Assembly: GCA_963837315.1 (NCBI GenBank)
Contig: CAWINE010000002.1
Span: 458,505 to 522,504, forward strand
Source of the DNA: an uncultured Chloroflexia bacterium
Lineage (GTDB): Bacteria > Chloroflexota > Chloroflexia > QHBQ01 > JADMIH01
Direction of reading: 5' to 3'
Length of the DNA stretch: 64,000 nt
In this document: positions 861-62,946 of the stretch, piece after piece
How the letters are laid out: every line of letters begins with the position of its first letter
Numbering within the stretch: position 1 is the first letter of the stretch
Notes under the pieces: generated by a model
Databases searched by the model: none
Seen by the model: only the letters and a program-made list of their open reading frames with translations
What the model was told of the DNA's origin: nothing
Made by a program: the position numbers and the translations under genes

Positions 861-967
861 GTTGTCAGTTGTCAGTTGTCAGTAGACGGACGAACGACGA
901 CGGCTTGAAACGTGAAACGTGAATAAGCAGTAAGCAGTAAGCAGTAATCCTGACCCCTGACCCCTAG
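861..967. repeat. Spacer made of tandem heptamer words (TTGTCAG x3, GAAACGT x2, AAGCAGT x3, CCTGACC x2)
   Basis: Tandem 7-nt periodicity read directly. The same words recur elsewhere in the window in both orientations. Confidence 0.9.
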
Positions 968-972
968 CGAAC

Positions 973-1765
973 GTGACCGACCAACCAGGCAGCGAATCCC
1001 GGCAGAAGCTACAGCCGGGGCAAACTCTCATTTTCCTCGGTGACCATACATCACCTGATGATGCGGGTTATGTGCGCGTTGTGCAGAAGGTGCTGTCTCA
1101 TTTCTACCCACAGCTTCAGGCCAATCTCATCAGCGCAGGCTCTCGCGGCCAGACAGCCGGTGGGTTGCGCCGCAGTGAGCTGATGCAAATCTTGACCTCC
1201 AGTAAACCCGATTGGATTGTGATAGGCGTAGGTCTGGGCGAGGCTATGCACGAGCCATCAGCGCGGCGCTTGCTCGATGAATACCGCAAGCGCCAGGCCG
1301 AAAAGGAGAGCGACGAGGCCGAATTGACGTTCGGCCCCGAATTTCGCGTGAAGCGAGCGGCTCTGGGCCCTGTATCCGACATCGGGCGCGAGCTGGAGGT
1401 TCAGCCTCTCAACCTGGAAGGCTTCAAGACCAATCTCGCAGCCGCCCTGAGCGAGATGCAAGCGGCAGGAGTGCGCGTCGCGCTGCAAACCACCATACTT
1501 GTCGGCAACGACCTTGAGAACCCTGCCAACGAGCATCCTGAAGCGATATAACCGCGCCATCAGAGAGGTCGCGGCCGATCACGGCGCGCTTCTTGTAGAC
1601 GCCGAAAAGGCATTTCGTGACGTTTTGGACCGTGCCGGCAATTATAAGCAGAGAGTAGCCCTCACAGGCCCTGATGGTGAGCTAAACGCCCAGGGACAAG
1701 CGCTTCTTGCGCGCACCTTCATGGCCGCCTTCGGAGTGCTCCCCTACCCCGGCTACCGGCCTTAA
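973..1765 (+). pseudogene. SGNH/GDSL-type hydrolase, frameshifted
   Basis: ORFs 973..1551 and 1499..1765 are the N- and C-terminal halves of one hydrolase. The N-terminal half carries the LIFLGDHTS block. The C-terminal half carries YNRAIREVAADHGALLVDAEKAF and TGPDGELNAQG. The frame changes near 1500-1540. Confidence 0.6.
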
Positions 1766-1805
1766 TCGGACCGGAACAGAGGGGCCGCATAGTAATTCGT
1801 AATTC

Positions 1806-2165
1806 CTAAGGTGTACCGGCTTGCTCTGTGGCCGCGTAACGGGTCCTTGCAGCCTCGATCTCTTCCCGATGCTGCGCTGTCCAGTGGCAAAGCTGGACCA
1901 GCGGTTCGATCAGGCTTTGCCCTAGCGGGGTCAGCGAATATTCTACCTTAGGTGGGATCACCGGGTGGACCTTGCGCTCGACGATCCCATCGCGCTCCAG
2001 CCCCCGTAGCGTCTGCGAGAGCATCTTGTGCGAAACCCCTCCCAATTCTCGCCGCAGCTCGCTGTACCGCCTGGTTCCACTCGCCAGTGCCTGCACGGTG
2101 AGTGCGGTCCACCAATTCGCGATCCGCCCCAAATTCTCATGCATTCCTTTTTGTTCATCGTCCAT
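1806..2165 (-). CDS. HxlR-family winged-helix transcriptional regulator
   Basis: 119 aa with the typical HxlR pattern: RYSELRRELGGVSHKMLSQTLRGLERDGIVERKVHPVIPPKVEYSLTPLG. Confidence 0.85.
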   Translation of the reverse strand: MDDEQKGMHENLGRIANWWTALTVQALASGTRRYSELRRELGGVSHKMLSQTLRGLERDGIVERKVHPVIPPKVEYSLTPLGQSLIEPLVQLCHWTAQHREEIEAARTRYAATEQAGTP

Positions 2166-2166
2166 A

Positions 2167-2224
2167 AACGCACCCCAAGGGTATATACTAACCTAAAGGT
2201 TAGTATATACCCTTGGGGTGCGTT
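2167..2224. promoter_or_regulatory. 58-bp perfect palindrome (28-bp arms, 2-nt centre), candidate operator or divergent promoter
   Basis: AACGCACCCCAAGGGTATATACTAACCT aa AGGTTAGTATATACCCTTGGGGTGCGTT. It starts 1 nt upstream of the HxlR ATG, and each arm contains TATATAC. Confidence 0.6.
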
Positions 2225-2354
2225 CTTGCCAACTATAGCACCCTATGCTATGGTTATGTAATAGGGCCTGGCCTTGTTGAGTAAAGTGCTTGCAGCTTGC
2301 TCCCCACAATCCCACACAATTGTCGCGAGAGTTATTTCCATTATTTAAGTTGGA

Positions 2355-2420
2355 AAGGAGGTGCAGGGGTGCTCCCCTGCCGGGGGTTTGGGGTGTCCCC
2401 AAAATCCCTCCATTTCCCAA
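2355..2420 (+). repeat. GC-rich dispersed element, copy A
   Basis: GGTGCAGGGGTGCTCCCCTGCCGGGGGTTTGGGGTGTCCCCAAAATCCCTCCATT. It is near-identical to the reverse complement of copy F at 58961..59033. Confidence 0.85.
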
Positions 2421-2518
2421 CAGATGCGTTGAAGGTGCATTAGAAGTCCCAGAGCGGGATTATGCGCTGCAAGGAAGTCATAGAGAGAAACCAGACGTAG
2501 GGTATCAAGGAGAGCGTC

Positions 2519-3523
2519 ATGAACGAGACAGATATAGAATGGGCTGAAAGCTACCAAAGAGAGCTCGGCGGGCACGCAGCCCAGCAGAGTGGCAGCACAG
2601 GCAGTGCAGGTACCCTCGAAGAGTGGCCTAACCTGCCGTACGAAGAATGGAGAGAGACCTATGAGACGCTCCACATGTGGACCCAGGTCGTCGGTAAAAT
2701 CCGCCTGACCCTCAGCCCCAGGGTAAACCATTGGTGGCACGCGGCGCTGTACGTTACGTCTCGCGGGCTTACAACTTCACCGATCCCCTACGGCCCCTAT
2801 GGCAGCCGCACCTTCGAGTTAACGTTCGACTTTATCAACCACACCCTGGTTGTGCAGACCAGCGACGGCACAACCAGGTATGTGGCACTCTATCCGCGTT
2901 CGGTGGCCGACTTCTACCGAGAGCTCATGGCCGTACTGCGCTCGATTGATATCGACGTCAGGATAAATACCACTCCTCAGGAGGTGCCCAATCCTATCGC
3001 CTGCGACATAGACAACGTGCACCACTCGTACGACCAGGAGTACGCGGGCAGGTTCTGGCGCATCTTGCTTCAGACAAGCACCGTCTTTCAGGCGTTCAGA
3101 GGCCGCTTTATCGGCAAGTGCAGCCCGGTCCATTTCTGGTGGGGCAGTTTCGATCTCGCGGTGACGCGCTTCTCGGGGCGGCGCGCTCCTGAGCGGCCTG
3201 GGGCAGACCTGATGACGCGCGAAGCTTACTCGCACGAATGCAGTAGTGCCGGCTTTTGGCCGGGCAACAGCATCTTGCCCACGACGATCTTTTACGCATA
3301 CATGGCTCCTGCCCCGCCAGGCTTTGAGAAAGCTGCTGTACAGCCCCCGGAGGCGTATTACGATGACCACTTCGGGGAATTTCTGCTACCCTACGACGCG
3401 GTACGCTGTGCTGCCGAGCCCCGGAAGGTTCTGATGGACTTTCTCCAGAGAACGTATGAAGCCGGGGCGGATCTGGCGAGCTGGGACCGTGAGGCGCTGG
3501 AGGCACAGGAGCAGGCCGACTAA
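2519..3523 (+). CDS. DUF5996-like conserved protein of unknown function
   Basis: 334 aa. The motif HMWTQVVGKIRLTLSPRVNHWWHAALYVTSRGLTT matches this family as I recall it. It is divergent from the HxlR gene. Confidence 0.7.
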   Translation: MNETDIEWAESYQRELGGHAAQQSGSTGSAGTLEEWPNLPYEEWRETYETLHMWTQVVGKIRLTLSPRVNHWWHAALYVTSRGLTTSPIPYGPYGSRTFELTFDFINHTLVVQTSDGTTRYVALYPRSVADFYRELMAVLRSIDIDVRINTTPQEVPNPIACDIDNVHHSYDQEYAGRFWRILLQTSTVFQAFRGRFIGKCSPVHFWWGSFDLAVTRFSGRRAPERPGADLMTREAYSHECSSAGFWPGNSILPTTIFYAYMAPAPPGFEKAAVQPPEAYYDDHFGEFLLPYDAVRCAAEPRKVLMDFLQRTYEAGADLASWDREALEAQEQAD

Positions 3524-3578
3524 CCGAGCAGAGACGGCGCAGTCACCAAGATGTGAGAAATGCAATGGAGGTATCGTC

Positions 3579-3920
3579 ATGAGTAATATGCAAAACCAGG
3601 GTCCGGATGAGCATCTGACCCCGGAGCACGTGCGGAATGTGCAGCCAAGCGCCTTAGGGTGCGAGGACTGCCTTGAGACAGGCGGACATTGGGTTCACCT
3701 TAGAATATGCACCGAGTGCGGGCATGTGGGCTGTTGTGACAACTCACCGAACAGACATGCCACCAGGCACTTCCACTCTACCCAGCACCCCATCATTCGC
3801 TCGTTCGAGCCTGATGAGGACTGGGGTTGGTGCTACGTTGACCAGCAGTATTTGGAGTCGATGGGACCACCCGCTAACACCTACGGCAGGCACTTTGGGT
3901 CAATACTACCCAGCAGCTAA
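3579..3920 (+). CDS. UBP-type zinc-finger domain protein
   Basis: Cys/His pattern CEDC...HLRICTECGHVGCCDNSPNRHATRHFHSTQHP. I chose the ATG at 3579 because GGAG lies 8 nt upstream. The ORF track starts at 3456. Confidence 0.8.
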   Translation: MSNMQNQGPDEHLTPEHVRNVQPSALGCEDCLETGGHWVHLRICTECGHVGCCDNSPNRHATRHFHSTQHPIIRSFEPDEDWGWCYVDQQYLESMGPPANTYGRHFGSILPSS

Positions 3921-4052
3921 GAAATCAGTTGACAGGAGTATATCAACGTCACGAGTAGAATTTGAACACGTTAGCCACTCGCCGCCTGTGGCGTCGTATC
4001 AAAACGTGGGAAGAGCCGTTCTTGGTGGGGATTTTGGGTAAACTCAGGGCAA

Positions 4053-14263: not shown

Positions 14264-14335
14264 GAATGTGGAATGTGGAATGCAGAATGCGGAATATCGT
14301 TTTTATTCCGCATTCTGCATTCCACATTCTGCATT
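14264..14335. terminator. Long hairpin built from heptamer words (TGGAATG/CAGAATG), downstream of 14342..14941
   Basis: ATGTGGAATGCAGAATGCGGAATA tcgtttt TATTCCGCATTCTGCATTCCACAT gives a perfect stem of about 24 bp. There is no clear U-tract. Confidence 0.5.
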
Positions 14336-14957: not shown

Positions 14958-15059
14958 GAATTGCGGATTGCGGATTGCGGATTACCAAAAACGTGTCGAA
15001 CTCTTGGCGATCTTGGCGTTGAAAGTTAATCCGCAATCCGCAATCCACAATCCGCAATC
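14958..15059. repeat. Inverted heptamer arrays (ATTGCGG x3 ... CCGCAAT x4) around a CTTGGCG core
   Basis: GAATTGCGGATTGCGGATTGCGGATTA ... TAATCCGCAATCCGCAATCCACAATCCGCAATC. The centre contains CTTGGCGATCTTGGCGTTGAAA. Confidence 0.9.
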
Positions 15060-20117: not shown

Positions 20118-20333
20118 GTGAAGCGTGAAGCGTAAAAGGTAAAACGTAACCGCCAAGACGCCAAGTTCCGCCAAGGGCCGCCAAGGTTTCTGTGAGTTTA
20201 AACCCAAAAGAATCCTCTGTGATCTCTGTGGACTTTGTGATTCAAACCCACAAAAACCTTCATGACCTTGGTGTCTTGGTGGTTCAAACCGTAGAATCCT
20301 TGGCGTCTTGGCGTCTTGGCGTTGAAAAAACGC
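20118..20333. repeat. Composite modular spacer element with imperfect terminal inverted CCAAGACG arrays
   Basis: GTGAAGC x2 and GTAAAAG words come first. CCGCCAAGACGCCAAG... lies at 20150..20186. Three internal units each contain a TTYAAACC...AATCC core. CCTTGGCGTCTTGGCGTCTTGGCG lies at 20298..20321. Confidence 0.85.
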
Positions 20334-31380: not shown

Positions 31381-31480
31381 GTCAGTTGTCAGTTGTCAGT
31401 TGTCAGTTGTCAGTAGACGGTGGGCAGTGGGCAGTCGACCTTCGTCGTCTACTGACAACTGACAACTGACAACTGACAAC
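31381..31480. repeat. Long hairpin of inverted TTGTCAG arrays
   Basis: GTCAGTTGTCAG x4-5 then TAGACG on the left, and CGTCTA then CTGACAA x4 on the right. The loop contains GGGCAGT x2. Confidence 0.9.
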
Positions 31481-31488
31481 TACGTATG

Positions 31489-32038: not shown

Positions 32039-32143
32039 ACCAGTGACCAGTGACCAGTGACCCGTTTCGTTTCTTCGTCGGTCGTTGCTCGTCGATCGTC
32101 CGTCCTGACAACTGCACAACTGACAACTGATAACCGACAACTG
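32039..32143. repeat. Heptamer-word spacer (GTGACCA x3, TCGT-rich centre, TGACAAC x4)
   Basis: Read directly. Confidence 0.85.
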
Positions 32144-33267: not shown

Positions 33268-33330
33268 AGAAATGAGAAATGAGATATGAGAACCTAGCGC
33301 ACTTCTCATGTCTCATTTCTCATTTCTCAC
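33268..33330. repeat. Hairpin of inverted GAAATGA arrays
   Basis: AGAAATGAGAAATGAGATATGAGAA ... TTCTCATGTCTCATTTCTCATTTCT. The right arm touches the stop codon of the upstream gene. Confidence 0.9.
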
Positions 33331-34739
33331 TTCTTCTCCACCACCATCGTCGGCACTACCGAGCCTGTGCCCGCGGTTACGTTGAGGAGGGCAGCTGACG
33401 ATAGCCTGGTCAGCACGCCCTGGGTATCCGAGCCGAATACGAATGGATCGAGGTCGGCGGTGAGGTCGCGGAAGCTGACCCCGTGCGTCGGGTCGTAATA
33501 CGGGTACGACTCCTGGTCCAGGTGAACGGCCCACTGGACCACGAAGGGGCTGGCAAGCGCTTCCTTGATGGCCCGCTGCCATTCGTCCTCATTCGACGCC
33601 CAGCCAATGGTGACGCCCTTTCCCGCCGTACTCGTCGTTCGGCTTCAACACCAGCCGCTCACGGTTTTCCGAAATGAAAGGAATAAGGTCGATTTGCCGG
33701 TCGTTGAAGGTGGTATGCCCCTCCGCGACTTTGCGCGTCCAGGGGATATGGCGGTGGATTATGTCAAGCTCATGGGCACTGAAGAGATGGGCGTTGGCGT
33801 CGTCGTGCAGCAGCCCGAAGCTCATCTTCTTGTGCAGCAGCTTGGCGCGGAACGAGTTGATGACGCACACCGCGCCCGCTTCGTAAGCGTCAAGGGTTGC
33901 TTTCGCTGCCTCGGGCTTCTCAAGCAGCTCACTGGTAAGCACTCGCTTGTAGTAGATGTCGATCACGAAATCGCCGTCGCGCAGCCTGCCGTCTTTGAAC
34001 TCGAGCCGCTCAGGCGCGGTTATAAGCACATTCAAGCCTTTCGAGTGGAAGTACTGCTCGAAAAGCTCGAACTCGGTGGAAGTCGCCACATCCTCCCAAT
34101 CCACGATCGCGATATTGGGCTGCTCGTTGAAGTTGCTCGCGCCCCTGTTGGCCCGAAACTCCCGCCAGACGTCCTCGATAGCCTGCATGAAGCGGTCGCG
34201 GGCATACAGCGGCCTGGACCCTGTACCCGCTCTTCGCCTGCCATTCTTTCATGACAGGCAATTCCTGGAATACCTCGGCAAGCACGTCTTCGTAAGCTAT
34301 GGCAGCGGGCGATTCGGCGTTCATCTCCACAAAGCGCCAGTCGCGCTCCGACCAGAACGAGTTGAGGCGCGCGCTCGGGCGAAGGCTCCTCGAAGCCTGG
34401 ATCGACCATAACGAGATGGCGCTCGGTTGGCGTCAGATCAAGCTGCGCGAGCAGGTTCTCGTCGTGCAAGGCGGCCCGCCGAAGCTTTATCATGGCCGAC
34501 GCGAGCGTACCAACCACATCTTTTATGACCGAGTATTGCCCGGCGGTGACGAAGTGCGGTCTCAAATACCGGCTAAACGGCTCGCCACGGAACACCAGCA
34601 GACGCTCTTCGCTCAACCGAGCCAGCATCTCCTGAGAATCGGCAGCCACCCGGGGATTGCCTGCCAGAAACTCGTGATAATCTTCAATAGCGGGGTGCGC
34701 GCTCTCCGCCTCAATACTCGCATCTGGAACAAAGCTCAT
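33327..34739 (-). pseudogene. Glutathionylspermidine-synthase-like (pre-ATP-grasp) amidoligase, 3 frameshifts
   Basis: RLNSFWSERDWRFVEMNAESPAAIAY has the RxDF...LE.NA.sP layout. IAIVDWEDVATSTEFELF, VINSFRAKLLHKKMSF and LVLKPNDEYGGKGV are also present. Shifts lie near 34365, 34212 and 33603. The exact subfamily is uncertain. Confidence 0.6.
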
Positions 34740-34784
34740 TGCACACCTCTTGCTGTTGCTGCTTGGACAAACGTTTTTCTTTCA

Positions 34785-34984
34785 CCGCCAAGACGCCAAG
34801 ATCCGCCAAGATCGCCAAGGTTTTTATTGTTTTTACCACAAAGACACGAAGATCACGAAGGTCACGAAGGTCACGAAGGTCACAGGATATTATTGTTTTG
34901 AATAACAGAGTACACAGAGGATTATTATGGTTATAATACCCATGAGAACCTTGGCGATCTTGGCGGATCTTGGCGTCTTGGCGG
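34785..34984. repeat. 200-bp modular element with perfect 36-bp terminal inverted repeats
   Basis: CCGCCAAGACGCCAAGATCCGCCAAGATCGCCAAGG at 34785..34820 is the exact reverse complement of 34949..34984. The interior holds three units, each an AT-rich core (GGWTTNTTATNGTTNT) plus a CACGAAG/CACAGAG word array. Confidence 0.9.
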
Positions 34985-36061
34985 TTATCGTTTTTCGTTT
35001 TTCGTTTTTCGTTTTACGCCTTCCCGCTCACCTTTTTTCGCCTCCTGGGCGGCGCCTGCCACGTCCTCGTGGGCGAATTCGGTCCAATCCTTGATGGGGG
35101 TGCCCATGGGCGGAGGGGTCGAGTTGAGGAAGCTATCCCAGCGGTAGTTTGCGCCTGGAGTATAACCGTTAAGCGCGCGGTCGATTACGAGGTCTGACAT
35201 ATTCTCCACCACCCATTCGAAATAGCTGGGTGTGATCGAATGGTAGTCCATATCGGGGGCGGGGTTCAGCCAGTCGATCGCGTAGGGGATGTTGTCGCGC
35301 ACGGCAAACTCTACGGTGTCCATGTCGTAGCCGAGGCTGCTGGTAAGGGTGATCGCGTCCCGCACGATCCTGTCGTGCAACTCTTCACCGAAGAAATGGG
35401 CCGGGTCTTCCACGACGTAGCGTAGGTGGAACGGGTTGCCAGGCTCGTACCTGATTACTTTGATATTCTTCTGCCCCAGGCAGATGCAGCGGGCATATTT
35501 ATCGAACTCGATGCCCTCCTGCAAAATCATCCCAAGCTCGCCCGTCTGGTCGAAGCACCAGACCAGCTCGTCAAGATTGTGCGCCTTGTAGACGTTCTTC
35601 CAGCCCCCTCCCCAGAATGGCTTGAGAAAGCATGGAAAGCCCACATATTCGGAGATCGATTTCCAATCGAGAGGGTATTGCAGGTTACGCAACGATTCGG
35701 AAACCACGCCCTCAACGTACGATTTCTGAGGCAGCACGATGGTCCTGGGCACAGCCACACCCTGCTTGGTCGCCACACATGCCTCAAAGAATTTGTCGTC
35801 GGCGGCCCACCAGAAGGGGTTGTTTATGACCACACAGCCGTCCAACACCGCTTTCTTGAGATAGCCCCGGTAGTATGGTATCTCGTGCGAGATTCGGTCC
35901 ACGATCACGGCGTAAGGGATAGTCTCGTCCATGCGGGTGCCGCCCAACCGGCAGAACTCGGCGCGCACGCCCATATTCTTTGATTTCACACGGTCTATGA
36001 AGGCGTGTGGAAATGTGTTCTCCCGACCCACCAGCAAACCAACAATCTTCTCTTCAGCCAT
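34985..36061 (-). CDS. ATP-grasp domain protein
   Basis: The start is set at MAEEKIVGLLVG (ATG 36061). The ATP-grasp layout includes GFPCFLKPFWGGGWKNVYKAHN, MILQEGIEFDKYARC and VEFAVRDNIPYAIDWLNPAPD. The last 8 codons are encoded by a CGTTTTT heptamer array. Confidence 0.7.
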   Translation of the reverse strand: MAEEKIVGLLVGRENTFPHAFIDRVKSKNMGVRAEFCRLGGTRMDETIPYAVIVDRISHEIPYYRGYLKKAVLDGCVVINNPFWWAADDKFFEACVATKQGVAVPRTIVLPQKSYVEGVVSESLRNLQYPLDWKSISEYVGFPCFLKPFWGGGWKNVYKAHNLDELVWCFDQTGELGMILQEGIEFDKYARCICLGQKNIKVIRYEPGNPFHLRYVVEDPAHFFGEELHDRIVRDAITLTSSLGYDMDTVEFAVRDNIPYAIDWLNPAPDMDYHSITPSYFEWVVENMSDLVIDRALNGYTPGANYRWDSFLNSTPPPMGTPIKDWTEFAHEDVAGAAQEAKKGEREGVKRKTKNEKR

Positions 36062-36983: not shown

Positions 36984-37330
36984 TATCACGCCTTATCATA
37001 AGTGACCAGGGCTTTGTCAAAGTGGAGAAAATGGCCAGGGCGTGCCACCCGCCTGGACCTTGTCATTCTAAACGCAGTGAAGGGTCACTATCCCTGGCAG
37101 TGTGCGCTGAAGACAACTTCTTCACTCCGTTCACTGCCCGCTGCCCACCGGAAGGCAACCAATTCGATGGCCCTGTTGTGTTAACATCGGCTGTTTGATG
37201 CTGAGCCCTACGAACCCCGCTCGCTGGACAAAGCGGCCGAATTGTGCAATATGATGGAATGTCGAGCAGCGATCAGCCGGAGGTAATCGGTAATCGATGA
37301 TTGTGGGTAACTGATAACGAGGAGGATGTC

Positions 37331-38143: not shown

Positions 38144-38152
38144 CCCCAGCTC

Positions 38153-38225
38153 GAATTCTAATCTTAATTTTGAATTCTTAGTTAACGACGGAAATCAAGA
38201 ACTCAAAATTAAGAATTCAGATTCA
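38153..38225. repeat. AT-rich imperfect hairpin containing GAATTC sites
   Basis: GAATTCTAATCTTAATTTTGAATTCTTAG ... AAGAACTCAAAATTAAGAATTCAGATTC. It is the same word family as 39252..39303. Confidence 0.8.
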
Positions 38226-38235
38226 AGATTGCGCC

Positions 38236-39253
38236 ATGCAAGTACCATCTAACACACAGTCCTTCTACGACACCCTCTTCAACGCCGACTTCATGCGGAA
38301 GCTGGAGCGGTTGTCACTGGTCAGCCGCAAGCTGAAAGCAGGGCGGATGAAAGGCGAGCGCCGCAGCCCCAAGCGCGGGCAGTCGGTCGAGTTCGCTGAT
38401 TATCGCAATTACACACACGGTGACGATTTGCGCCGGGTCGACTGGAACGCTTACGCTCGAATGGAGCGCCTTTTCATCAAGCTCTTTCAGGAAGAGGAGG
38501 ATCTTACAGTTCACTTGCTGCTCGATGCGAGCAAGTCGATGGATTGGGGCGACCCGAACGATATCACCCTTACGGCACCGGTAGCTCCGGTCGATTCTGG
38601 AGGTGCGTGCGATCGGGGGGGTGGTGGCTCCTGCACCTGGCACGAACACTCACGACCAGAATAAGCTGGTCTATGCCAGGCGAATGGCAGCGGCGCTCGG
38701 ATATATTACCCTCTCGAACCTTGATAGGCTGAGCCTCACCGCTTTCAGTCAGGCCGGGTTGCAGCGATTTTCGGCGGTGCGAGGGAAGGGACACGCGGTG
38801 TCGCTCTTGCGCTTCATCGCGGGGGTAAAGGCGGAGGGCACGACAAACCTCGATCTCATGCTGCGCCAGTACGCAAGCCAGGCACGCTACCCCGGCCTCC
38901 TCTTCGTGCTCAGCGATTTGCTTGTGGAAGGCGGCGGCATAGAGGGTCTGAAGGCTTTGCAGGCCGCGGGCCATGAGGTGAACGTGCTGCATATACTGGC
39001 CCCGGCCGAGATCCACCCCGAGCTGGCCTTGATTGGCGATCTTCGCCTCAAAGATATAGAGACGGGCGCGACCCAGGAGGTGTCAATAGATGGCGGCATC
39101 CTCGACCTCTATCGCGAGAAGTTCGAGGCATGGCAGTCCGAGATCGAGGAGTTCTGCCGCCGCCGAGGCATCAACTACATGCAGATAACAACCGACCAGC
39201 CCTTCGAGGACCTGGTGCTTCACTACCTGCGCAGGCGGGGAATACTGACCTGA
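38236..39253 (+). pseudogene. DUF58 domain protein, frameshift at a G7 run
   Basis: GERRSPKRGQSVEFADYRNYTHGDDLRRVDWNAYARMERLFIKLFQEEED lies in ORF 38236..38664. KLVYARRMAAALGYITLSNLDRLSL lies in ORF 38603..39253. The frames change around GGGGGGG at 38614..38620. Confidence 0.8.
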
Positions 39254-39303
39254 ATTCTTAATTTTGAATTCTGAGTTAATTTAGAATTCAAAATTAAGAA
39301 TTC
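39252..39303. terminator. Perfect 21-bp AT-rich hairpin overlapping the DUF58 stop codon
   Basis: GAATTCTTAATTTTGAATTCT gagttaattt AGAATTCAAAATTAAGAATTC. Confidence 0.6.
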
Positions 39304-40516: not shown

Positions 40517-42496
40517 TTATGCTTGTGAGGCTGTGGTATTAGTACCAGTGGGCAGTGAGCAGTGGGCAGTGGGCAGCATGCCCACTGCCCATCCGTGCGT
40601 CACTGGCTCACTGCCCACTGGACTCGTACTCCCGCCTACAACTTCCCGTGTCGCTAGCTCTTCGAGGTCGTCGGTTGGGGGCAATTCTTCCAGGGGAAGA
40701 CCGGCGGCGCTCTTTGTGTAAAGGCGATAATAGAGGCCGGCATGCGCCAGCAGCTCGCGGTGGGTGCCTATCTCCACCAGGCGACCGGCTTCGATGACGG
40801 CGATTTTGTCGGCGCGCTCCACGGTGGTGAGTCGATGGGCAATGATAAGAGTGGTACGCCCCTTCATCAGCCTGTCGAGCGCGTCGCGCACCAGCCGCTC
40901 GCTCTCATTGTCGAGCGACGACGTGGCTTCGTCCAGTATCAGGATGCGAGGGTCACGCAGGATGGCGCGGGCGATGGCCACTCGCTGGCGCTGCCCGCCG
41001 GACAGCTTTACCCCACGCTCGCCGACAATGCTCCGGTAGCCATCCGGGAAGTCGATAATGAAGTTATGAGCGTTGGCTGCGCGCGCAGCGTCCTCGACTT
41101 CGGCCTCGGTGGCGTCCAGGCGGCCGTAGGCGATGTTGTCGTATATTGTGCCGCCGAATAACTGCGGGTCCTGTGGAACGATAGCGATGGCGTCGCGCAA
41201 ACTGTTCATTGTAAGGTCCCGCACGTCCTGGCCGTCAACGAGCACAGCACCATCCGCCACATCGTAGAAGCGCGGCACCAGGCTGGCAAGGGTCGTCTTG
41301 CCAGCGCCGCTTGGCCCAACCAGGGCCATGACGGTTCCCTCCTCAATCTTGAGCGATAACTCCTTGAGTACGTCCGGGCCGTTCACGTAATGGAAAGTGA
41401 TATCGCGTAGCTCAACTTCGCCACGGGCCGGAGCCGGCAGAGGCACCGCGCCCGGCGAATCCTTGATATCGGGCTCGGTGTCGAGGATCTCGAAGAGCCT
41501 GTGAGCCGCGCCGCTTGCCTCCTGAAACTGGGCGTACACCCCGGTGAGAGCGCTGATTGGAGCGGTTGCCATGATTATGTAAAGTGGAAGTATGAATAAC
41601 TGGCCGGGAGAAAGGTTGCCGTTCAGCACTTCGTTCCCGCCGAACCACATGATACCGGCCAGCGCGGCGAAGCTGATCAGGGTGATGAACGAGATGAAGA
41701 CGGAGCGCGTGCGGATGCGCATGAGGCCCACATTGAACGACTCTTCCACGGCGCTGCCATAGCGCCCGATCTCGTAATCTTCCCGCCCGAAGGCCTTGAC
41801 AACACGTGGTGCGGTCAGCGTTTCCTCAAGCACGGTTGTAGCGACGCCGAGGGCCGCCTGCGCTCTCTCCGACATCCCCCGCAGGCGCCTACCAAAGAGT
41901 ATGCCCGTAAGCATTACCGGCGGTACCACCACGAGCACCAGCGCTATCAGCCGCCAATCGATGAGGATGATCATGGTCAAACCGCCCACCAGGGTAAGCA
42001 CCTGGCCGAGCGGGCCGATCAGGTTGTTGGTGAGGCCGGCCTGCACCACAGTGACGTCGTTGCTGAGGCGCGAGGTAAGCTCTCCCACCCGCTGGTTATC
42101 GTAGAAACCGAGCGAGAGGCGCTGAAGGTGAGTGAAGACGCTCTTACGCACGTCGGCCACCAGCCGCTCGCCTGTATAAGAGATGAGATACGTTTGTCCG
42201 AAGTTGAACACAGCCTGTACCAGGAAAACGCCCACAAGCACCAGAGCGCTGGCGGTCATCATTCCCACATCCTTGTAGGTGATGGCGCTATCCACGATAC
42301 GCTGCAAGAGCAAGGGGAAAGAAAGCTGCAGCAAAGTGGATACTGCCAGGCACACGGCCGATACAATCAGCAATTTCCAGTAGGGGCGGGCAAGACGGAT
42401 GAGGCGAGCCAGCGTGGCGCGGTCAGGCGGACGAGCGTGGTCCTCGTCGTTGTCCTTGGCGCGCCCTCGCCTGTAAGAGCTTGGGCGAACTATCAA
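40517..42496 (-). CDS. ABC exporter, fused permease/ATPase (MsbA/ABCB-like)
   Basis: 659 aa with a six-TM domain, Walker A GPSGAGKTT, signature LSGGQRQR and Walker B ILILDEATS. The C-terminal tail of about 60 aa runs into a repeat hairpin. Confidence 0.9.
   Translation of the reverse strand: MIVRPSSYRRGRAKDNDEDHARPPDRATLARLIRLARPYWKLLIVSAVCLAVSTLLQLSFPLLLQRIVDSAITYKDVGMMTASALVLVGVFLVQAVFNFGQTYLISYTGERLVADVRKSVFTHLQRLSLGFYDNQRVGELTSRLSNDVTVVQAGLTNNLIGPLGQVLTLVGGLTMIILIDWRLIALVLVVVPPVMLTGILFGRRLRGMSERAQAALGVATTVLEETLTAPRVVKAFGREDYEIGRYGSAVEESFNVGLMRIRTRSVFISFITLISFAALAGIMWFGGNEVLNGNLSPGQLFILPLYIIMATAPISALTGVYAQFQEASGAAHRLFEILDTEPDIKDSPGAVPLPAPARGEVELRDITFHYVNGPDVLKELSLKIEEGTVMALVGPSGAGKTTLASLVPRFYDVADGAVLVDGQDVRDLTMNSLRDAIAIVPQDPQLFGGTIYDNIAYGRLDATEAEVEDAARAANAHNFIIDFPDGYRSIVGERGVKLSGGQRQRVAIARAILRDPRILILDEATSSLDNESERLVRDALDRLMKGRTTLIIAHRLTTVERADKIAVIEAGRLVEIGTHRELLAHAGLYYRLYTKSAAGLPLEELPPTDDLEELATREVVGGSTSPVGSEPVTHGWAVGMLPTAHCSLPTGTNTTASQA
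40545..40621. repeat. Inverted GGGCAGT heptamer arrays centred on GCATGC, inside the 3' end of the ABC ORF
   Basis: CCAGTGGGCAGTGAGCAGTGGGCAGTGGGCAGC atg CCCACTGCCC...CTCACTGCCCACTGG. Confidence 0.85.
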
Positions 42497-42566
42497 GTCA
42501 TTTGTCCTGAGATGGTTATAAGATATGCCGCAGGGATTCAGGTGGGCAGTTTATTATACGCGAAGC

Positions 42567-42627
<61 letters not shown>

Positions 42628-42751: not shown

Positions 42752-42847
42752 GATCGGGGGTGCAGGGGCGCTCCCCTGCCGGGGCCGGGGGTGTCCCCGA
42801 AACTCCCTATTCCCCAATATCTTTCATGAACATGCACCAGGGGCTAG
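42752..42847 (+). repeat. GC-rich dispersed element, copy C (tandem to B)
   Basis: Near-identical to copy B over about 95 nt. Confidence 0.9.
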
Positions 42848-42908
42848 TGACCGGTGACCGGTGACCAGGCGACGATCATCTACTGACAACTGACAACTGA
42901 CAACTTGG
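42848..42908. repeat. Heptamer-word array (GTGACCG x3, CTGACAA x3)
   Basis: Read directly. Confidence 0.85.
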
Positions 42909-42911
42909 TCA

Positions 42912-43801: not shown

Positions 43802-43857
43802 ACGTAATTCACGAATTACGAATTACGAATTGACGGGGAGCTGTGATTTGTAATTCG
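43802..43857. repeat. GAATTAC heptamer array with an inverted partner
   Basis: CGTAATTCACGAATTACGAATTACGAATTG ... TTGTAATTCG. Confidence 0.8.
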
Positions 43858-43877
43858 CAAAGCGCAGGGGTGGCGAA

Positions 43878-47540: not shown

Positions 47541-47676
47541 CGACCGACGATCGACGCATAAGACGACCCAAGACGTAACGGCCACGACCGGCCGCATAGC
47601 AACGAGGCACGATGATGAAAACCCTGCAATCCGCACTCCGCAGTCCGCAATCCCGGCCATCGACCGCACCCCGAAG

Positions 47677-49525: not shown

Positions 49526-49712
49526 TGGGCGACGAAGGACGAAGGACGAACATATTGTTCAACGCCAAGACGCCAAGACGCCAAGGATTCTACGGTTTGA
49601 ACCACAAAGGCACGAAGAGCACAAAGGTCTTTATTGTTCTGAATCACAGAGATCACAAAGGTTATCAATGGTCACTGGTCAACTGACAACTGACAAACAA
49701 CAACTACGACAG
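49526..49712. repeat. Composite modular spacer (GACGAAG x3, CGCCAAGA x3, core units, CTGACAA x2)
   Basis: It has the same architecture and cores (GGATTCTACGGTTTGAAC, GGTCTTTATTGTTCTGAAT) as 20118..20333 and 34785..34984. Confidence 0.85.
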
Positions 49713-49714: not shown

Positions 49715-51465
49715 TTGAGTATGAAGAAGCTGACGAGAGGCGGTGCTATCAGGTTAACGCTGCTGTTATGCTTCTTCATACTCGCCCTGAACAAGGATCA
49801 AACCACGGGGGCCGCGCCAACGCTTACGGCGAAGGTGTCGGCCCCTGTTCTGTATTGGCAGGCGGGCCCGGCATCCAGAAGTCGGCGAGCATGGCGGGGC
49901 ACCTGATGGTCTACACGAGCTGTGTTGCGGGCAACTGCGACGTGCTCGCGCTCGACCTGGCCACCGGCAAGGTGACTCCTATAGCCGCACAGCCATGGAA
50001 CGAGCAGCAGCCGGACACCGACGGCCAGCGGGTGGTCTGGCAGGATGGCCGCAGCACACCGGCACCAGCGCAGACAAAAGCACCGACAATCTCACTCAAC
50101 GACTTCGATATCTACGGGGCGAACCTGGACGATCTCAAGCCATACCAGCTTACAGGCGCAAAGACAAGAGCAGAACCACCCTGTCGTGTGGGGCAATATA
50201 GCGGCCTGGGCCGATTTCCGTGATGCCCAGACCCCACAGGACCAACAAGCCGGCAACATTTACCTCTACGATATCCCGGCAGGCAAAGAAACCGCGATTG
50301 CCACTGCCCGCAGCGCTCAGGTGCGCCCTGTCACCAACGGCAGCGTGGTCGTTTGGGTAGACTATCGCAACGAGCCTGACCCAAACGGCACAAACTCCGA
50401 CATTTACGCCTACGACATCGCAAGCGGGCAGGAGTTTGCTATCACCACGGCCCCCGGCACGCAGACCGACCCCGCAATCTCCGGCAACATCGTCGTGTGG
50501 GCCGATTACCGTAAGTCGGCGGACGAATTCCGACATTTACGGCTACGATTTGGCCACCAAAAAGAGAGTTCCTCATCACCGACGCGCCCGGCAGCCAGGT
50601 GAGGCCGGCAATCTGGGGCAACCTCGTCGTCTGGACCGACTTTCGCAACGAGCCGGACAAAGTCAACGGCACCAACTCCGATATCTACGCCTATGACCTG
50701 AACACAAAGCAGGAGTTCCCTGTATTCGTCGGGCCAGGACGCCAGGACAACCCCAAAACCGCGTCGGGCGTGATCGCCTGGGAGGATAGCACAAAGGGCA
50801 ACAGCGACGTGGACATCATGGGCGCGACGGTGAGCGGCATCACGCTGACCGCGCCGCCCTGCCCCCCACCGATATTGCCGGGGAGCGGCAGCCGCTTCTT
50901 CCCTGAGACCGGGCCAAACGGTCACAGGCATCTTCCTCGATTACTGGAACCAGAACGGCGGGCTGGCGCAGCAAGGCTTCCCGATCTCAGGCGTCATGAC
51001 CGAGACGAGCGACCTCAATGGCAAAACCTACCTGGTGCAATACTTCGAGCGCGCGGTCTTCGAATACCACCCCGAAAACCCACCGCAAACGCCAGGTGCT
51101 GCTGTCCCAGTTGGGCACTTTCCGCTTGAGAGAAAAATATCCCAATGGCCCTCCCCTTGTCCTACGCACGCCCCTCGACCCAAACTCGCTTTTCTTCTCC
51201 CGAGACCGGCTACACAGTGTCAGGCAACTTCCTAACATACTGGCAGCAGCACGGCGGTCTCGCCCAGCTGGGCTACCCTATCTCCGGCCTCTTCACAGAA
51301 GTCAGCGACCTGAACGGCAAGCCTTACACCGTCCAGTACTTCGAGCGAGCCGTCTTCGAATACCACGCCGAAAATGCGCCGCCCTACGACGTGCTGCTCT
51401 CCCAGCTTGGCACTTTCCGGTACAAGGCTAAATACGGGGGGCGAGTAGTTGTCAGTTGTCAGTAG
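49715..51465 (+). pseudogene. Secreted PD40/TolB-like beta-propeller repeat protein with two C-terminal FPETG/YFERAVFE modules, at least 7 frameshifts
   Basis: Signal MSMKKLTRGGAIRLTLLLCFFILAL. Repeats of the type NSDIYAYDIASGQEFAITTAPGTQTDPAISGNIVVWADYR are spread over all three frames. It is a paralog of 51719..53450. Confidence 0.65.
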
Positions 51466-51575
51466 ACCGGTGACCGGGGGCTAGGGACTAGGGGCTAGAC
51501 CTACAGTAACCTCGTGCACTCTATGCCGCCGTGCTCTTGTTCAGAACAATGAAACCTTGGCGGCTTGGCGTTGAA
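51446..51575. repeat. Heptamer-word and core spacer (TTGTCAG, GGTGACC, GGGCTAG, TTCAGAACAATGAAACC, CTTGGCG)
   Basis: Read directly. It shares the junction CTTGGCGTTGAAAAA with 20318 and 15016. Confidence 0.8.
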
Positions 51576-57726: not shown

Positions 57727-57925
57727 GCTCTTCTCCTATCCCGGGGACTCCGTATTCGCCCGGCCGTTCGTCAACTCGATTTACCTACTGCAACTCATAT
57801 GCCAGCGGCAACGAGGAAAATGAGGTACCAGCCTAATTACCGTCTTTCGTCTTTCGTCCCGTTCTGCGTTATATTATCTCCATGCAGACCTCTTCTTTTT
57901 TTCTTCCGAAATACGAGATCTCGAT

Positions 57926-61198: not shown

Positions 61199-61210
61199 CA
61201 GGTGTTTGCG

Positions 61211-61345
61211 AGAAATGAGAATCGTAGTACCAAGTACCAAGTAGCACCAGGCACTTCGTTTCTCACATCTCGTTTCTCATTTCTCGTCTCTCATTTCTCG
61301 TCTCTCGTCTCACGTCTCTTCCCTTGGTACTTGAAACTTGTACCC
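61211..61345. repeat. Heptamer-word spacer (GAAATGA, GTACCAA x2, TTTCTCA/TCTCGTC series, inverted CTTGGTAC)
   Basis: Read directly. The 3' end of the response-regulator ORF extends into it. Confidence 0.8.
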
Positions 61346-62021
61346 AAATCCCGGCTCCGACATGATGAATTTTGGATTAGAGGGATCAGGCTCCAATTTC
61401 TGACGCAGCGCCCTTATATAGACCCATAGGTAGCCGGTTTCGTCGCGATATTCGGGACCCCATACTTTCGATAGGAGGTCAGTATGGGGCACCACTTTGC
61501 CTGCCTGCTGGGCCAGTTGCTGCAACAGCTTATATTCGGTAGGGGTCAATCGTACCGGCTGGCCGGCGTACTCAACTTTGCGCTTCAAGAAGTCTATAGT
61601 TAGATCGCCCGCCTGTATCACATGGCTGCTCTCGTCTGCGCCCTGCAACTGGCTCCTTCTGAGCACGGCTCTTACTCGCGCCACCATCTCGTCGGGGTCG
61701 AATGGCTTGGTGATATAGTCGTCGGCTCCCAATTCCAGGCCGCGCACCTTCTGGCTCTGATCGCCCATCGCCGTCAAGATTATTATGGGCACATGCGACA
61801 CCTCGCGTATGCGCTGGGTGAGCGTGAAGCCGTCCATACCGGGCATCGTCACGTCCACCACCATCGCATCGGGCACTTCGGTGTCGAATTGCTCAAGAGC
61901 TGCAGTTCCACTCGAAGCCGTCGTGACGGCGAATCCTGACCCTCTCCAGATTGACGCGCACCAGCCTCAACAGACGTGGATCATCGTCCACGACCAATAT
62001 AGCCTGCTTGTTTTTCATCAT
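61310..62021 (-). pseudogene. OmpR/PhoB-family response regulator, one frameshift
   Basis: MMKNKQAILVVDDDPRLLRLVRVNLER, then after a shift near 61940 GFAVTTASSGTAALEQFDTEVPDAMVVDVTMPGMDG. The winged-helix C-terminus reads LTPTEYKLLQQLAQQAGKV...GFGYKF. Confidence 0.85.
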
Positions 62022-62059
62022 ATCTTAATAATACCACCATGGGTAACAGTGGGGGATCG

Positions 62060-62127
62060 AGAAGAAATAGAAATAGATCGTACCGTTGGTCGAAACCTCA
62101 GTTTCTAATTTCTCATTTCTCATTTTC
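62060..62127. repeat. Inverted GAAATAG/TCATTTC word arrays
   Basis: GAAGAAATAGAAATAGA ... TTTCTAATTTCTCATTTCTCATTTTC. Confidence 0.75.
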
Positions 62128-62244
62128 TTTAATGCCATCTTAAGGGCCTATCATGACCCCTTCAGGCGATTCTCAGGGAGGAGACGGTAGGATTATGGCG
62201 AACGACATTGCAGCAACAAAATCGCTAGAAGGGCGGTCATCGCT

Positions 62245-62865
62245 TTGAACACTTACACAACCGAACATCAAAATATGGCCTCGCTCCATATAATAGAGGC
62301 CCCGGTCGATCCGCAATCCGCAATCCGCAATCCGCAATCCGCAATCCGCCAGGCCGCCCTTCAGGCGATCTACGATGCTCATGTGGAGCAGATATACAAA
62401 TTCGTCTTTTTCAAAGTAGGCAACCGCGAAGATGCCGAAGACATCACGTCGCAGGTGTTTATGAAAGCCGCCCACTCGCTCGATATTACACAGCAGGAGC
62501 ATACTCAGCTTGCCTGGCTCTACCAGGTAGCACGCACTACTGTCACCGATCACTGGCGCAATTATTACCGGGGCATCACGTCGAGCCTCGATGCCCTGGA
62601 AGAGGAAAGCCCACAGCACCTGGCAGCCGAGCCCTTTCACGCAGATGCCCCGCAAGACGAGATGGTCGACCCGGCCATCGAGAAGGTGCGCGCCGTGCTA
62701 GCCCTGCTACCTCAAAATTACCGGCGTGTGCTTGAACTCCGCTTCCTTCAGGGCTGCTCACAAAAAGAGACTGCTGCCGCCATGCAAATCACCGAAGCAA
62801 ACGCCAAAGTAATACAGCATCGCGCTATCCAGAAGGCTCTCAAAGTGGGCGCGGGGATCGTTTAG
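62245..62865 (+). CDS. ECF-type sigma-70 family RNA polymerase sigma factor
   Basis: Region 2 reads YDAHVEQIYKFVFFKVGNREDAEDITSQVFMKA...DHWR. Region 4 reads LPQNYRRVLELRFLQGCSQKETAAAMQITEANAKVIQHRA. The start is a TTG at 62245 or the ATG at 62275. Confidence 0.85.
   Translation: MNTYTTEHQNMASLHIIEAPVDPQSAIRNPQSAIRQAALQAIYDAHVEQIYKFVFFKVGNREDAEDITSQVFMKAAHSLDITQQEHTQLAWLYQVARTTVTDHWRNYYRGITSSLDALEEESPQHLAAEPFHADAPQDEMVDPAIEKVRAVLALLPQNYRRVLELRFLQGCSQKETAAAMQITEANAKVIQHRAIQKALKVGAGIV
62311..62345 (+). repeat. CCGCAAT x5 heptamer tract inside the sigma-factor ORF
   Basis: Read directly. It is translated as PQSAIRNPQSAIR. The same word is used in intergenic arrays at 14958..15059. Confidence 0.9.
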
Positions 62866-62946
62866 TGCTTACTGCTTAGGCTGGGGGCTAGGGGTCAGTA
62901 GGACCACGAAGGAGCAGTAAGCAGTAAGCTAGCCCCTGACCCCTAC
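62866..62946. repeat. Heptamer-word spacer (TACTGCT, GGGGCTA, GGGTCAG then AGCAGTA, CCCTGAC)
   Basis: It uses the complementary word pairs seen at 861..967, arranged A' B' ... A B. Confidence 0.8.

Follow-up and report, generated by a model that had tools for sequence, protein, structure and literature searches.

A 64,000-nt stretch of the genome of an uncultured Chloroflexia bacterium (contig CAWINE010000002.1 of assembly GCA_963837315.1; hereafter the window) carries a dense set of tandem heptanucleotide arrays at its gene boundaries. These arrays are real and enriched, lie mainly in DNA that looks non-coding, recur as dispersed copies, pair in inverted orientation, keep a fixed polarity relative to transcription and turn over fast between relatives. 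The reading that we favour, with confidence that goes about halfway, is that they are dispersed, slippage-prone mosaic elements of the short tandemly repeated repetitive (STRR) type, which behave like repetitive extragenic palindromic (REP) sequences and bacterial interspersed mosaic elements (BIMEs); they would be selfish or near-neutral DNA, with hairpins that act on mRNA only secondarily.

Tandem Repeats Finder recovered arrays of period 7 (or 14 or 21) at essentially every coordinate named in the initial annotation of this DNA, and the proposed enrichment was borne out: exact primitive arrays with a period of 7 and a length of 16 nt or more number 29 in the window and average 0.2 after mononucleotide shuffling, with 0 to 2 exact arrays at periods 8-12 and near-chance numbers at periods 4-6. 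The same exact-run count gave 0.8 period-7 arrays per 64 kb in control loci (78 loci of other phyla, 1.35 Mb, gathered originally for another purpose). Genes were mapped with our own rough segment model of codon usage, by which 78% of the window is coding; an earlier sliding-window track proved overly strict, with 46% coding, and was replaced by it. By this model the non-coding-like part, roughly 22% of the window, contains about 82% of array bases; arrays make up 4.2% of that part versus 0.31% of the coding-like part, and lag-7 identity is 0.291 in non-coding-like and 0.247 in coding-like DNA, around a baseline of ~0.257. The arrays are intergenic in the main, as had been proposed, but at least two arrays of the word ATCCGCA (62309-62349 and 47626-47653) are probably part of open reading frames (ORFs). 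The further proposal, that more than 20 spacers consist almost entirely of arrays, held for their number, with about 21 to 25 spacers bearing arrays, but not for their composition, because some are built only partly of them.

The vocabulary of the window comprises about 20 words out of 1170 possible heptamer classes. Every one of the 11 heptamers and two 8-9-mers that had been listed was found, namely TTGTCAG, AGCAGTA, CTGACCC, ATTGCGG, GAATTAC, GAAATGA, GTGACCA, GGCTAGT, GGGCAGT, TGGAATG, CGTTTTT, CCAAGACG and CACGAAGGT. The dominant word is CAACTGA (complement TTGTCAG), with 23 occurrences in six elements. A CAGT core plus three variable bases was considered as a general rule and rejected, as only about 4 of the 20 window words fit, although the rule does fit TTGTCAG, AGCAGTA, GGGCAGT and GTGACCA and the published words STRR1, STRR3 and TAACTGA discussed below. 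A translation barrier is no general explanation either, since stop codons in all three frames are found in some words (CTGACAA, CTGACCC, GTGACCA and GGCTAGT) and not in others (ATTGCGG, GGGCAGT, TGGAATG and CGTTTTT).

The position of the arrays relative to genes is precise. As first annotated, they occur after stop codons, between convergent genes and 5′ of starts (for example at 856, 39250-39303 and 37301, respectively); they begin 0-10 nt past the stops at 856, 20107, 34985, ~33333, ~32150, 42912, 49525 and 51465, and end a few nucleotides before the Shine-Dalgarno or start sites at 31364, 37301 and 49721. The words also have a direction. In six elements, next to genes on both strands, sense TTGTCAG adjoins the stop and sense CAACTGA adjoins the start: CAACTGA stands forward before the start of the malate dehydrogenase gene (mdh) and before the ATG at 49721, and reversed directly after five stop codons. 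AATCCGC is sense in three of three cases, and GAAATGA comes first and TCATTTC second in two of two. Overall, the polarity of words relative to transcription was consistent in eight of eight independent comparisons (p ~0.004).

Neighbouring arrays of the same word are inverted. All 11 same-word pairs no more than 200 nt apart, over six spacers, are inverted and none is direct, which upholds the annotated tendency of a word to reappear in opposite orientation across a spacer; two complete copies of a longer element, named here after its CGCCAAG repeats and described below, are further inverted pairs beyond the 11. Five spacers had been annotated as hairpins and all five fold, at -35 to -71 kcal/mol with z scores between -6.6 and -11.2. 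The hairpin (GAATGYG)4.6/(CRCATTC)4.4 at 14264..14335 (minus strand; arms of 32 nt, 94% complementary) lies between the stop of the gene at 14342-14941(-) and the start of a proline dehydrogenase-like gene (13319-14236(-)), has unit variants that are mirrored between its arms (14265-14335), and folds over 14255-14345 at -48.8 kcal/mol (z = -10.5). Its neighbour (ATTGCGG)3.4/(AATCCGC)4.6 at 14958..15059(-), with two CTTGGCG units within its loop, lies 3′ of a promoter-like site at 15111-15083(-) and 5′ of the gene 14342-14941(-) (fold of 14950-15070, -57.1 kcal/mol, z = -7.1). The hairpin at 31381..31481(-) is perfect, with 36-nt arms of 100% complementarity and a 26-nt loop that contains (ACTGCCC)2; on the gene strand it reads (TTGTCAG)4-TAGACG, loop, CGTCTA-(CTGACAA)4, ends 3 nt 5′ of the AGGAGG Shine-Dalgarno of mdh (30378-31364(-)) and folds over 31375-31490 at -70.8 kcal/mol (z = -11.2). 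The remaining two are (AGAAATG)3.6/(TTCTCAT)4.6 at 33268..33334(-), which lies between a 470-aa gene and the GCS2 gene and overlaps the stop of the upstream gene (33260-33345, -35.2 kcal/mol, z = -6.6), and (CAGTGGG)4.4/(CCCACTG)-type at 40546..40621(-), at the 3′ end of an MsbA-like ABC transporter gene (40517-42496(-); fold of 40540-40630, -63.8 kcal/mol, z = -7.9). A sixth spacer, 62866..62946(+), was correctly described as having its complementary words in the order A′B′...AB and as no simple hairpin: it reads (CTTACTG)2 and (GGGGCTAG/GGGGTCAG), then (AGCAGTA)2.4 and (CTAGCCC/CTGACCC), follows the stop of a gene for an extracytoplasmic function (ECF) sigma factor, and gave no significant nested fold on either strand (z ~-0.2).

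Inverted pairs very often place the array on the outside and have a fixed junction that points into the loop, as in (TTGTCAG)n-TAGAC(G), loop, (C)GTCTA-(CTGACAA)n. The same TAGAC junction stands 3′ of the TTGTCAG arrays at 860, 42882 and 51447. Transcripts of such pairs would thus carry a long, near-perfect stem-loop and no U-tract. Two palindromes that are not made of heptamers were also observed, one at 2167-2224 (28-nt arms, 100%, 2-nt loop) that adjoins the start of the HxlR-like gene 1806-2165(-), and one at 39483-39568 (33-nt arms, 94%, 20-nt loop) inside a LarC-like region.

Arrays also recur as modules at distant sites. The 33-nt sequence TGACCAAG(TTGTCAG)3TAGA is 100% identical, flanks included, at 854-886 and (as complement) at 42879-42911, in both places just past a stop codon; the two genes concerned, 74-856 and the LysM gene (42912-43589), are unrelated. 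The first copy opens a composite spacer, 860..965(+), between genes 74-856(+) and 973/1072-1551(+), with the order TGA-CCAAG-(TTGTCAG)3.4-TAGACGG-ACGAACG-ACGACGG and then (TGAAACG)2.6, (TAAGCAG)3.4 and (CCTGACC)2.4. The second lies at 42847..42911(-), straight after the stop of the LysM-domain gene 42912-43589(-), where (GTGACCG)2.9 is followed by TGA-TGA-CCAAG-(TTGTCAG)3-TAGA on the gene strand. The bigram (TAAGCAG)n-(CCTGACC)n of the first spacer recurs in turn, at 924-965 and 62910-62946.

The largest recurring unit is the CGCCAAG element, of about 200 nt with (CGCCAAGnn)4 inverted ends. Copy A (20149..20325(+)) reads (CGCCAAGnn)4, then an interior of 9-mer units of the CTCTGTGAT and TCTTGGTG types, then (CTTGGCGT)3; it is preceded by (GTGAAGC)2.3 and (CGTAAAA)2.7 at 20118..20149(+), which begin 10 nt past the stop of the M20 peptidase gene 18845-20107(+), and is followed by the Shine-Dalgarno and ATG of the gene at 20356. 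Copy B (34784..34985(-)) has 52-nt inverted ends that consist of (CGCCAAGnn)4 and are 90% complementary, with (CACGAAGGT)4.3 inside. Half copy C (49555-49660) has a repeat match of 106 nt at 84%. Outside the window, two copies were found in the related locus L001 and 11 complete hairpins in contigs labelled viral. Like miniature inverted-repeat transposable elements (MITEs), the element is bounded by terminal inverted repeats and is present in several dispersed copies of about the same length. A second dispersed repeat, GC-rich and about 70 nt long, was observed as GGGGTGCAGGGG(C/T)GCTCCCCTGCCGGGG..GGGGTGTCCCC(G)AAA with two small internal hairpins; it occurs in both orientations at 2352-2420, 42649-42706, 42751-42808, 56321-56355 and 58829-59030, either alone, or paired at a distance of about 100 nt, or in three tandem copies with a period of 70.

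The host is not cyanobacterial, as the initial annotation had judged from gene content, because the nearest relatives of its malate dehydrogenase and its conserved gene order both point to metagenome-assembled genomes (MAGs) of Chloroflexota. Among the matches listed, the nearest relatives of this protein (73-91% identity) are labelled Chloroflexia or Chloroflexota and come only from uncultured MAGs and metagenomes, the next group standing at ~61%. Gene order is kept across ~18 kb in L081 (GCA_039932335.1), L084 (GCA_035710025.1) and L083 (ENA ERZ25039533), whose malate dehydrogenases are 89%, 80% and 78% identical to that of the window. The description of the genome as GC-rich is true only moderately, the window having a GC content of ~58%. 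A search of the window with Rfam (gathering thresholds) and ARAGORN returned no rRNA, tRNA or Rfam family.

Orthologous operon junctions in the relatives are short and lack the arrays of the window at the four junctions that were compared. Between the ATP-grasp and 470-aa genes the spacer measures 10 nt in L084, 88 in L083, 194 in L081 and 245 in the window; between the M20 and PRC genes the corresponding values are 18, 75, 81 and 248 nt, and between DUF421 (or GCS2) and mdh they are 38, 26, 68 and ~120-135 nt. The junction of the 470-aa gene and GCS2 measures 22 nt in L084, 114 in L083 and 81 in the window, and is occupied in L081 by an extra gene. At junctions that carry arrays in both the window and L081 the words differ: the window has its GAAATGA hairpin between the 470-aa gene and GCS2, and L081 has CGTAAAA, the inserted gene and TTTTACG. 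Likewise, a CGCCAAG hairpin stands 5′ of mdh in L001, as opposed to the TTGTCAG hairpin of the window. The words themselves are shared. Two of the three heptamer words of L001 belong to the window set (0.05 would be expected), L081 has CGTAAAA in common with the window, and the same words appear in L081 spacers singly or in degenerate form. Array positions therefore turn over fast against a conserved vocabulary. Density, measured as the number per 10 kb of exact period-7 runs that are 14 nt or longer, is 5.8 in the window, 3.3 in locus L002, 2.4 in L081, 1.9 in L084, 1.7 in L001, 1.4 in L083 and 0.84 in the controls; the value for L001 is an understatement, as its arrays are imperfect, and Tandem Repeats Finder reported AATTACG x3.1, AGTTATC x5.7, ACTGACA x5.6 and the two CGCCAAG elements there. 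The extra gene of L081 (7586-8153) is an observation in its own right: it encodes a 150-aa protein of the 23S_rRNA_IVP family (PF05635, four-helix-bundle), is found only in L081, and stands between (CGTAAAA)2.7 and (TTTTACG)4.1, so that it sits in the ‘loop’ of an inverted array pair.

The dominant word and its junction extend far beyond this clade. The 19-mer TTGTCAGTTGTCAGTAGAC, which is the exact (TTGTCAG)2-TAGAC junction, was found in 70 metagenome contigs of 35-69% GC, and in 10 of the 54 usable loci the TAGAC side has an inverted copy no more than 250 nt away, as against none for the other side. Contigs labelled viral contained (TTGTCAG)3 in 61 stretches of 35-70% GC, together with related words such as CAACTGG, CAACCGA and TAACTGA, and CCGCCAAGACGCCAAG in 58 stretches, where the 11 complete CGCCAAG hairpins measure 60-137 nt and have the ends GAACCGCCAAGACGCCAAG...CTTGGCGTCTTGGCGGTTC. 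Two permuted control heptamers were found in 2 and 23 viral stretches, which indicates that heptamer arrays are common as such and that their abundance depends strongly on the word. Many low-GC loci from termite gut (L091, L104, L121, L140 and others; GC 0.43-0.55) have ATGAA(A/G)... 5′ of (TTGTCAG)n-TAGAC and a conserved sequence, GRRGGNTACG ... GGTTTTGTGCCGTGGAAAGGCATGG, 3′ of it. This pattern suggests a short leader ORF or a structured RNA of that group, and possibly another use of TTGTCAG; these matches were not counted as evidence for hairpins, as they may represent a different and possibly coding phenomenon. The metagenome contig L100 (Ga0137417_1413275, 1-4349), which has inverted TTGTCAG arrays at its two ends, was considered as an autonomous element and rejected, since the whole contig is its own reverse complement (nested 100% inverted repeats) and lacks a transposase; it is most likely a fold-back assembly artefact.

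Heptamer arrays have a history. STRR sequences, which Mazel and colleagues reportedly described in 1990 (cited through PMC4692102), are tandem heptanucleotides of heterocystous cyanobacteria. The arrays of the window are STRR-like, as annotated, in that both are dispersed intergenic arrays of 7-nt tandem units, in either orientation, with several words per genome and no known function. They differ in belonging to one of the Chloroflexota, in pairing as a rule in inverted orientation and in forming longer composite elements that recur. The cyanobacterial words STRR1 (CCCCAGT), STRR2 (TTGGTCA) and STRR3 (CAACAGT) have no tandem copies within the window, where the nearest word is TGGTCAC, with one hexamer in common with STRR2. 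Small dispersed non-coding elements at gene 3′ ends and between cistrons include the REP sequences and BIMEs of enterobacteria, the REPINs of Pseudomonas and Correia or other MITE-like elements, and the BIMEs of Escherichia coli are a classic combinatorial motif mosaic of alternating orientation. REP, BIME and REPIN elements resemble the window arrays in their transcript hairpins (predicted here), their few-motif mosaics in alternating orientation and their patchiness among relatives; the arms in the window, however, are tandem 7-mer arrays of variable copy number rather than a single imperfect palindrome of 20-40 nt.

STRR-type arrays, which the initial annotation called established for heterocystous cyanobacteria, are not confined to that group, as they have been published for Beggiatoaceae and Bacteroidetes (PMC4679880), Xanthomonas (PMC4692102) and Chloroflexus (PMC6749651). 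Nor are combinatorial words or inverted pairing without precedent: mixed heptamers (PMC4679880) and inverted pairs (PMC4692102) have both been published. TAACTGA arrays, intermixed with further heptamers, are known from Beggiatoaceae, Thiocystis, Cyanobacteria and Bacteroidetes; they stand forward close 5′ of starts and, in a single case, reversed directly past a stop, and horizontal spread by a mechanism that was not evident has been suspected (MacGregor 2015, PMC4679880). The CAACTGA of the window is one base off this word and shares its start/stop polarity, its spread across phyla and its intermixture with other heptamers. The difference is that ‘Maribeggiatoa’ has one dominant word, with 1 inverted repeat in 170 sets and CAACTGA only as three doublets (PMC4679880), whereas the window has about 20 words and common hairpins. 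TAACTGA itself occurs in the window only as two single copies and never in tandem, one of them being a variant unit at 32126-32132, whereas (AGTTATC)5.7 in L001 is a TAACTGA array. Within the same phylum, 22 satellites that derive from (GATAGRA)n are scattered over the genome of Chloroflexus aurantiacus and have been read as probably transposed (Subirana & Messeguer 2019, PMC6749651). Like the window arrays they are heptamer-derived and dispersed, but they consist of one other word, and PMC6749651 mentions neither inverted pairing nor a link with gene boundaries. The GGGAATC repeats of Xanthomonas form inverted pairs able to fold into stem-loops, and occupy the same junctions in related species with greatly varying length and sequence (Rehm et al. 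2015, PMC4692102). Together with the GGGGAYT repeats of Nostoc they resemble the present arrays as intergenic heptamer arrays with some inverted pairs; unlike the window words, which are not G-tracts, they are G-rich and are read as formers of G-quadruplexes. Arrays of GATAGRA and GGGAATC are absent from the window. In the literature searched we found no description of heptamer repeats in this Chloroflexota clade, and what is new here is the main word CAACTGA, one base off TAACTGA and of like polarity, the flank-identical distant copies, the recurring CGCCAAG element and the short junctions of the relatives, which lack the arrays of the window.

Our data are consistent with a model in which arrays of 7-nt words (some of 8-10 nt), sited at cistron junctions where they abut stops and end just before Shine-Dalgarno sequences, would be copied between sites as modules and would grow and shrink by slipped-strand mispairing, in line with the one-unit difference between the metagenome loci L103 and L142 given below. 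Copying might proceed by transposition in trans, gene conversion or template switching. The elements would occupy the only DNA at tight gene junctions that tolerates insertion, and would most likely be selfish or near-neutral, tolerated only at gene boundaries. Secondarily, the hairpins could block 3′ exonucleases, be processed by double-strand-specific RNases or insulate neighbouring cistrons from each other. The operon-tight junctions of the relatives suggest that the arrays lie within transcripts.

Several points weigh against this model. The CGCCAAG element ends without a clean target-site duplication, with AAAACG-type arrays on both sides, and neither a transposase nor a RAYT-like family was found among 20 ORFs compared with Pfam and 10 compared with NCBIfam in the 64-kb window. 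The nearest relatives, at 89-91% malate dehydrogenase identity, offer no pair of filled and empty sites between close strains. Several window words never form hairpins, and stem mismatches are uninformative on any sense-strand G-U bias (one for, one against). Transcription through the arrays and an effect on RNA are matters that we infer from sequence. The gene map is approximate, because many window genes are frameshifted relative to their orthologues: compared with L081, pntB, DUF421, GCS2, the 470-aa gene and the PRC-barrel gene are split over two to four frames (26531-27953, 31555-32011, 32152-33251, 33333-34739 and 20356-20983), which implies either an error-prone assembly with indels or decaying genes. 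ORF calls and annotation are unreliable as a result, yet frame splits cannot create arrays.

The arrays could instead be a pure mutational by-product, formed by slippage in 7-nt steps within spacers, with hairpins arising by template switching at quasi-palindromes and with neither mobility nor function. Heptamer repeats are over-represented in many bacterial genomes (PMC4692102), and a polymerase-footprint explanation has been proposed (Mrazek 2007, as summarized in PMC4692102). Slippage is also visible in the metagenome loci L103 and L142, which are the same locus one TTGTCAG unit apart; array density is patchy among close relatives (1.4-5.8 per 10 kb), and the single or degenerate word units of L081 could be seeds. 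Slippage alone does not account, however, for identical 33-mers with non-repeat flanks at two distant loci, for the recurrence of multi-word modules and of an element of ~200 nt, for words that recur both in a relative whose malate dehydrogenase is 73% identical and in unrelated taxa that range from 35 to 70% GC, for a polarity that agrees in eight of eight comparisons, or for abundances in viral contigs that lie thirtyfold apart among permutations of the same composition (61, 2 and 23 stretches). We regard this explanation as unlikely.

Somewhat less likely still is that the arrays are binding sites for a trans-acting factor, such as a protein of cold-shock, S1 or KH type that binds single-stranded RNA or DNA over a 7-nt footprint, or a nucleoid protein, which would govern a global post-transcriptional or insulating regulon, as has been speculated for TAACTGA. 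In Nostoc, heptamer repeats 5′ of recO and recF are reported to have a regulatory effect, deletion of the recO repeats alters regulation, and a binding partner has been postulated (bioRxiv 10.1101/2022.06.06.494920). The conservation of words rather than positions, the fixed start/stop polarity that matches that of Beggiatoaceae, and the adjacency of arrays to Shine-Dalgarno sites and start codons would all suit such a factor. Some 20 words, though, would need many factors or one very permissive one; the absence of arrays from the same genes in close relatives leaves no conserved regulon visible; perfect duplexes would exclude single-strand binders; and no candidate protein was identified. We give a similarly low probability to a bolder proposal, that the CAACTGA/TAACTGA arrays and the CGCCAAG hairpins are the termini of miniature mobile elements that have an outer array, a fixed inner junction and a variable loop, cross phyla, are carried by phages, insert at gene boundaries in a fixed orientation to transcription and depend on some machinery that generates or mobilises them. 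The idea arises from the (TTGTCAG)2-TAGAC junction in contigs of 35-69% GC, from its inverted partner on one side only (10 versus 0) and from the presence of both motifs in dozens of viral contigs.

Strong hairpins, many of them just past stop codons, recall ordinary Rho-independent terminators built from repeats. A terminator scan of the window called no array hairpin terminator-like, and no T-run follows any of them when their tails are read from the sequence. The stems, of 26-36 bp, are far above those of typical terminators, and several hairpins lie 3-30 nt 5′ of starts in operon-tight junctions or in 5′ leaders past promoter-like sites. Promoter-like sites precede the arrays at 15111-15083 and 43755-43784, and another (40493-40466(-)) lies 3′ of the hairpin 40546-40621. 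Together with the lack of terminator-like tails, these sites lead us to expect arrays in 5′ leaders, intercistronic regions and the 3′ ends of transcripts. Canonical terminators are set aside on account of the missing U-tracts and of the positions, and we consider them very improbable. An artefact of assembly or sequencing, to which the many frameshifts relative to orthologues might point, is hardly credible, given that independent short-read MAGs (L001, contig name k141_...), 70 metagenome contigs and more than 100 viral-contig stretches show these words and this build of hairpin too, and that indel errors cannot make perfect inverted arrays.

The remaining arrays of the window vary in form. 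(GTAATTC)2 at 1792..1805 abuts the stop codon of the HxlR-like gene 1806-2165(-). The spacer between GCS2 and DUF421 (both on the minus strand; 32039..32143) reads, on the plus strand, (ACCAGTG)3.4, a TCGTCGA-like run and (CTGACAA)5.4, including one CTGATAA. (TCGTTTT)4 at 34988..35015 overlaps the final codons and stop of the ATP-grasp gene 34985-36172(-), and (GGTAATC)2.1 at 37282..37296(+) stands directly 5′ of the start of a methyltransferase-like gene at 37301(+). Two related AT-rich palindromes (with a repeat match at 96% identity) follow: an imperfect one at 38150..38232, 5′ of the ATG at 38236, with 7- and 14-nt units (GAATTCT, AATCTTA and similar), and one at 39250..39303 between the convergent DUF58 (38603-39253(+)) and LarC-like (39223-39873(-)) genes. 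In the 415-nt spacer between the LysM and ABC transporter genes, 42566..42626 holds (CAGGGGT)2, (AGTGACC)2 and (GTGGCTA)4.4. At 43806..43861(+), (AATTACG)3.6 and one inverted unit (GTAATTCG) form a small hairpin (z = -3.2) between the promoter-like site 43755-43784 and the start of a DeoC-family gene at 43878.

Further along, the spacer 49531..49696(+) starts with (GACGAAG)2.9 from 5 nt past a stop codon, continues with CGCCAAG half copy C (49555-49660) and finishes with (CAACTGA)2.4, 25 nt 5′ of the ATG at 49721, which opens with a signal-peptide-like start. At 51447..51498(+) the order is (AGTTGTC)2.4-TAGACC-GGTGACC-(GGGGCTA)3.1; here the upstream ORF continues across (TTGTCAG)2 and has the TAG of TAGAC as its stop codon, and its paralogue ends earlier, with ...YKAKYGGQ and a stop. 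(CGTCTTT)2.6 at 57841..57858 lies in the spacer from which DoxX (57067-57726(-)) and the gene at 57926(+) diverge. The array group GAGAAATGAGAA, (AGTACCA)2.6 and (TCATTTC/TCTCGTC)7.4 at 61210..61319(-) forms a partial hairpin (z = -3.9) between a response-regulator gene (61310-61876(-)) and 60899-61240(-), and (AGAAAT)2.5 with (CTCATTT)4 at 62063..62125 forms a weak inverted pair in a divergent spacer (z = -1.3).

The ATCCGCA arrays stand apart. The word is stop-free in all frames of both strands and occurs within open frames (62275-62865 and 47600-47680). (ATCCGCA)5.9 at 62309..62349(+) is probably within the N-terminal coding region of the ECF sigma factor gene (ATG 62275), where it would encode PQSAIRN repeats; in the ORF from 62245, region 2 of the sigma factor begins at residue 42. 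A degenerate (GCAATCC)4 at 47626..47653(+) lies inside an open frame just 5′ of an aldehyde-dehydrogenase-like N-terminus, and would encode a peptide similar to PQSAIRN just ahead of its MFIGGK start. Three observations concern neighbouring genes. Two adjacent paralogous membrane-protein genes (8462-13296) encode products of 793 and 808 aa with long charged N-terminal extensions and a conserved C-terminal domain, and have a single weak NCBIfam match, to an amino-acid/ethanolamine permease family. A gene cluster at 48700-53450 encodes proteins of repeated modules, with sequence repeats of ~144 nt and ~290 nt and the peptide motif YFERAVFEYHP..NQPPNDVLLSQLGTF. Lastly, a gene for a Rad52/Rad22-family single-strand annealing protein (15143-15967; Pfam E = 4e-11), which adjoins the ATTGCGG hairpin, may be a prophage remnant.

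Overall, bacterial heptamer arrays were recognized over 30 years ago, and an explanation of their origin and function is still sought. The window is an unusually dense and clean case in a phylum where one word in one species had been reported before, and it offers four testable regularities: the polarity of words, hairpins with the array outside in unrelated taxa, the copying of modules and the presence of the same sequences in viral contigs. In practical terms, stop-free words such as ATCCGCA and arrays that overlap stops distort ORF calls, and palindromic arrays cause fold-back contigs and assembly breaks. If arrays and CGCCAAG hairpins did prove to be the termini of mobile elements, the STRR puzzle, which dates from 1990, would have a mechanistic solution. 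The hairpins would also be relevant to the annotation of operons in Chloroflexota MAGs, should they prove to shape mRNA ends or to decouple cistrons.

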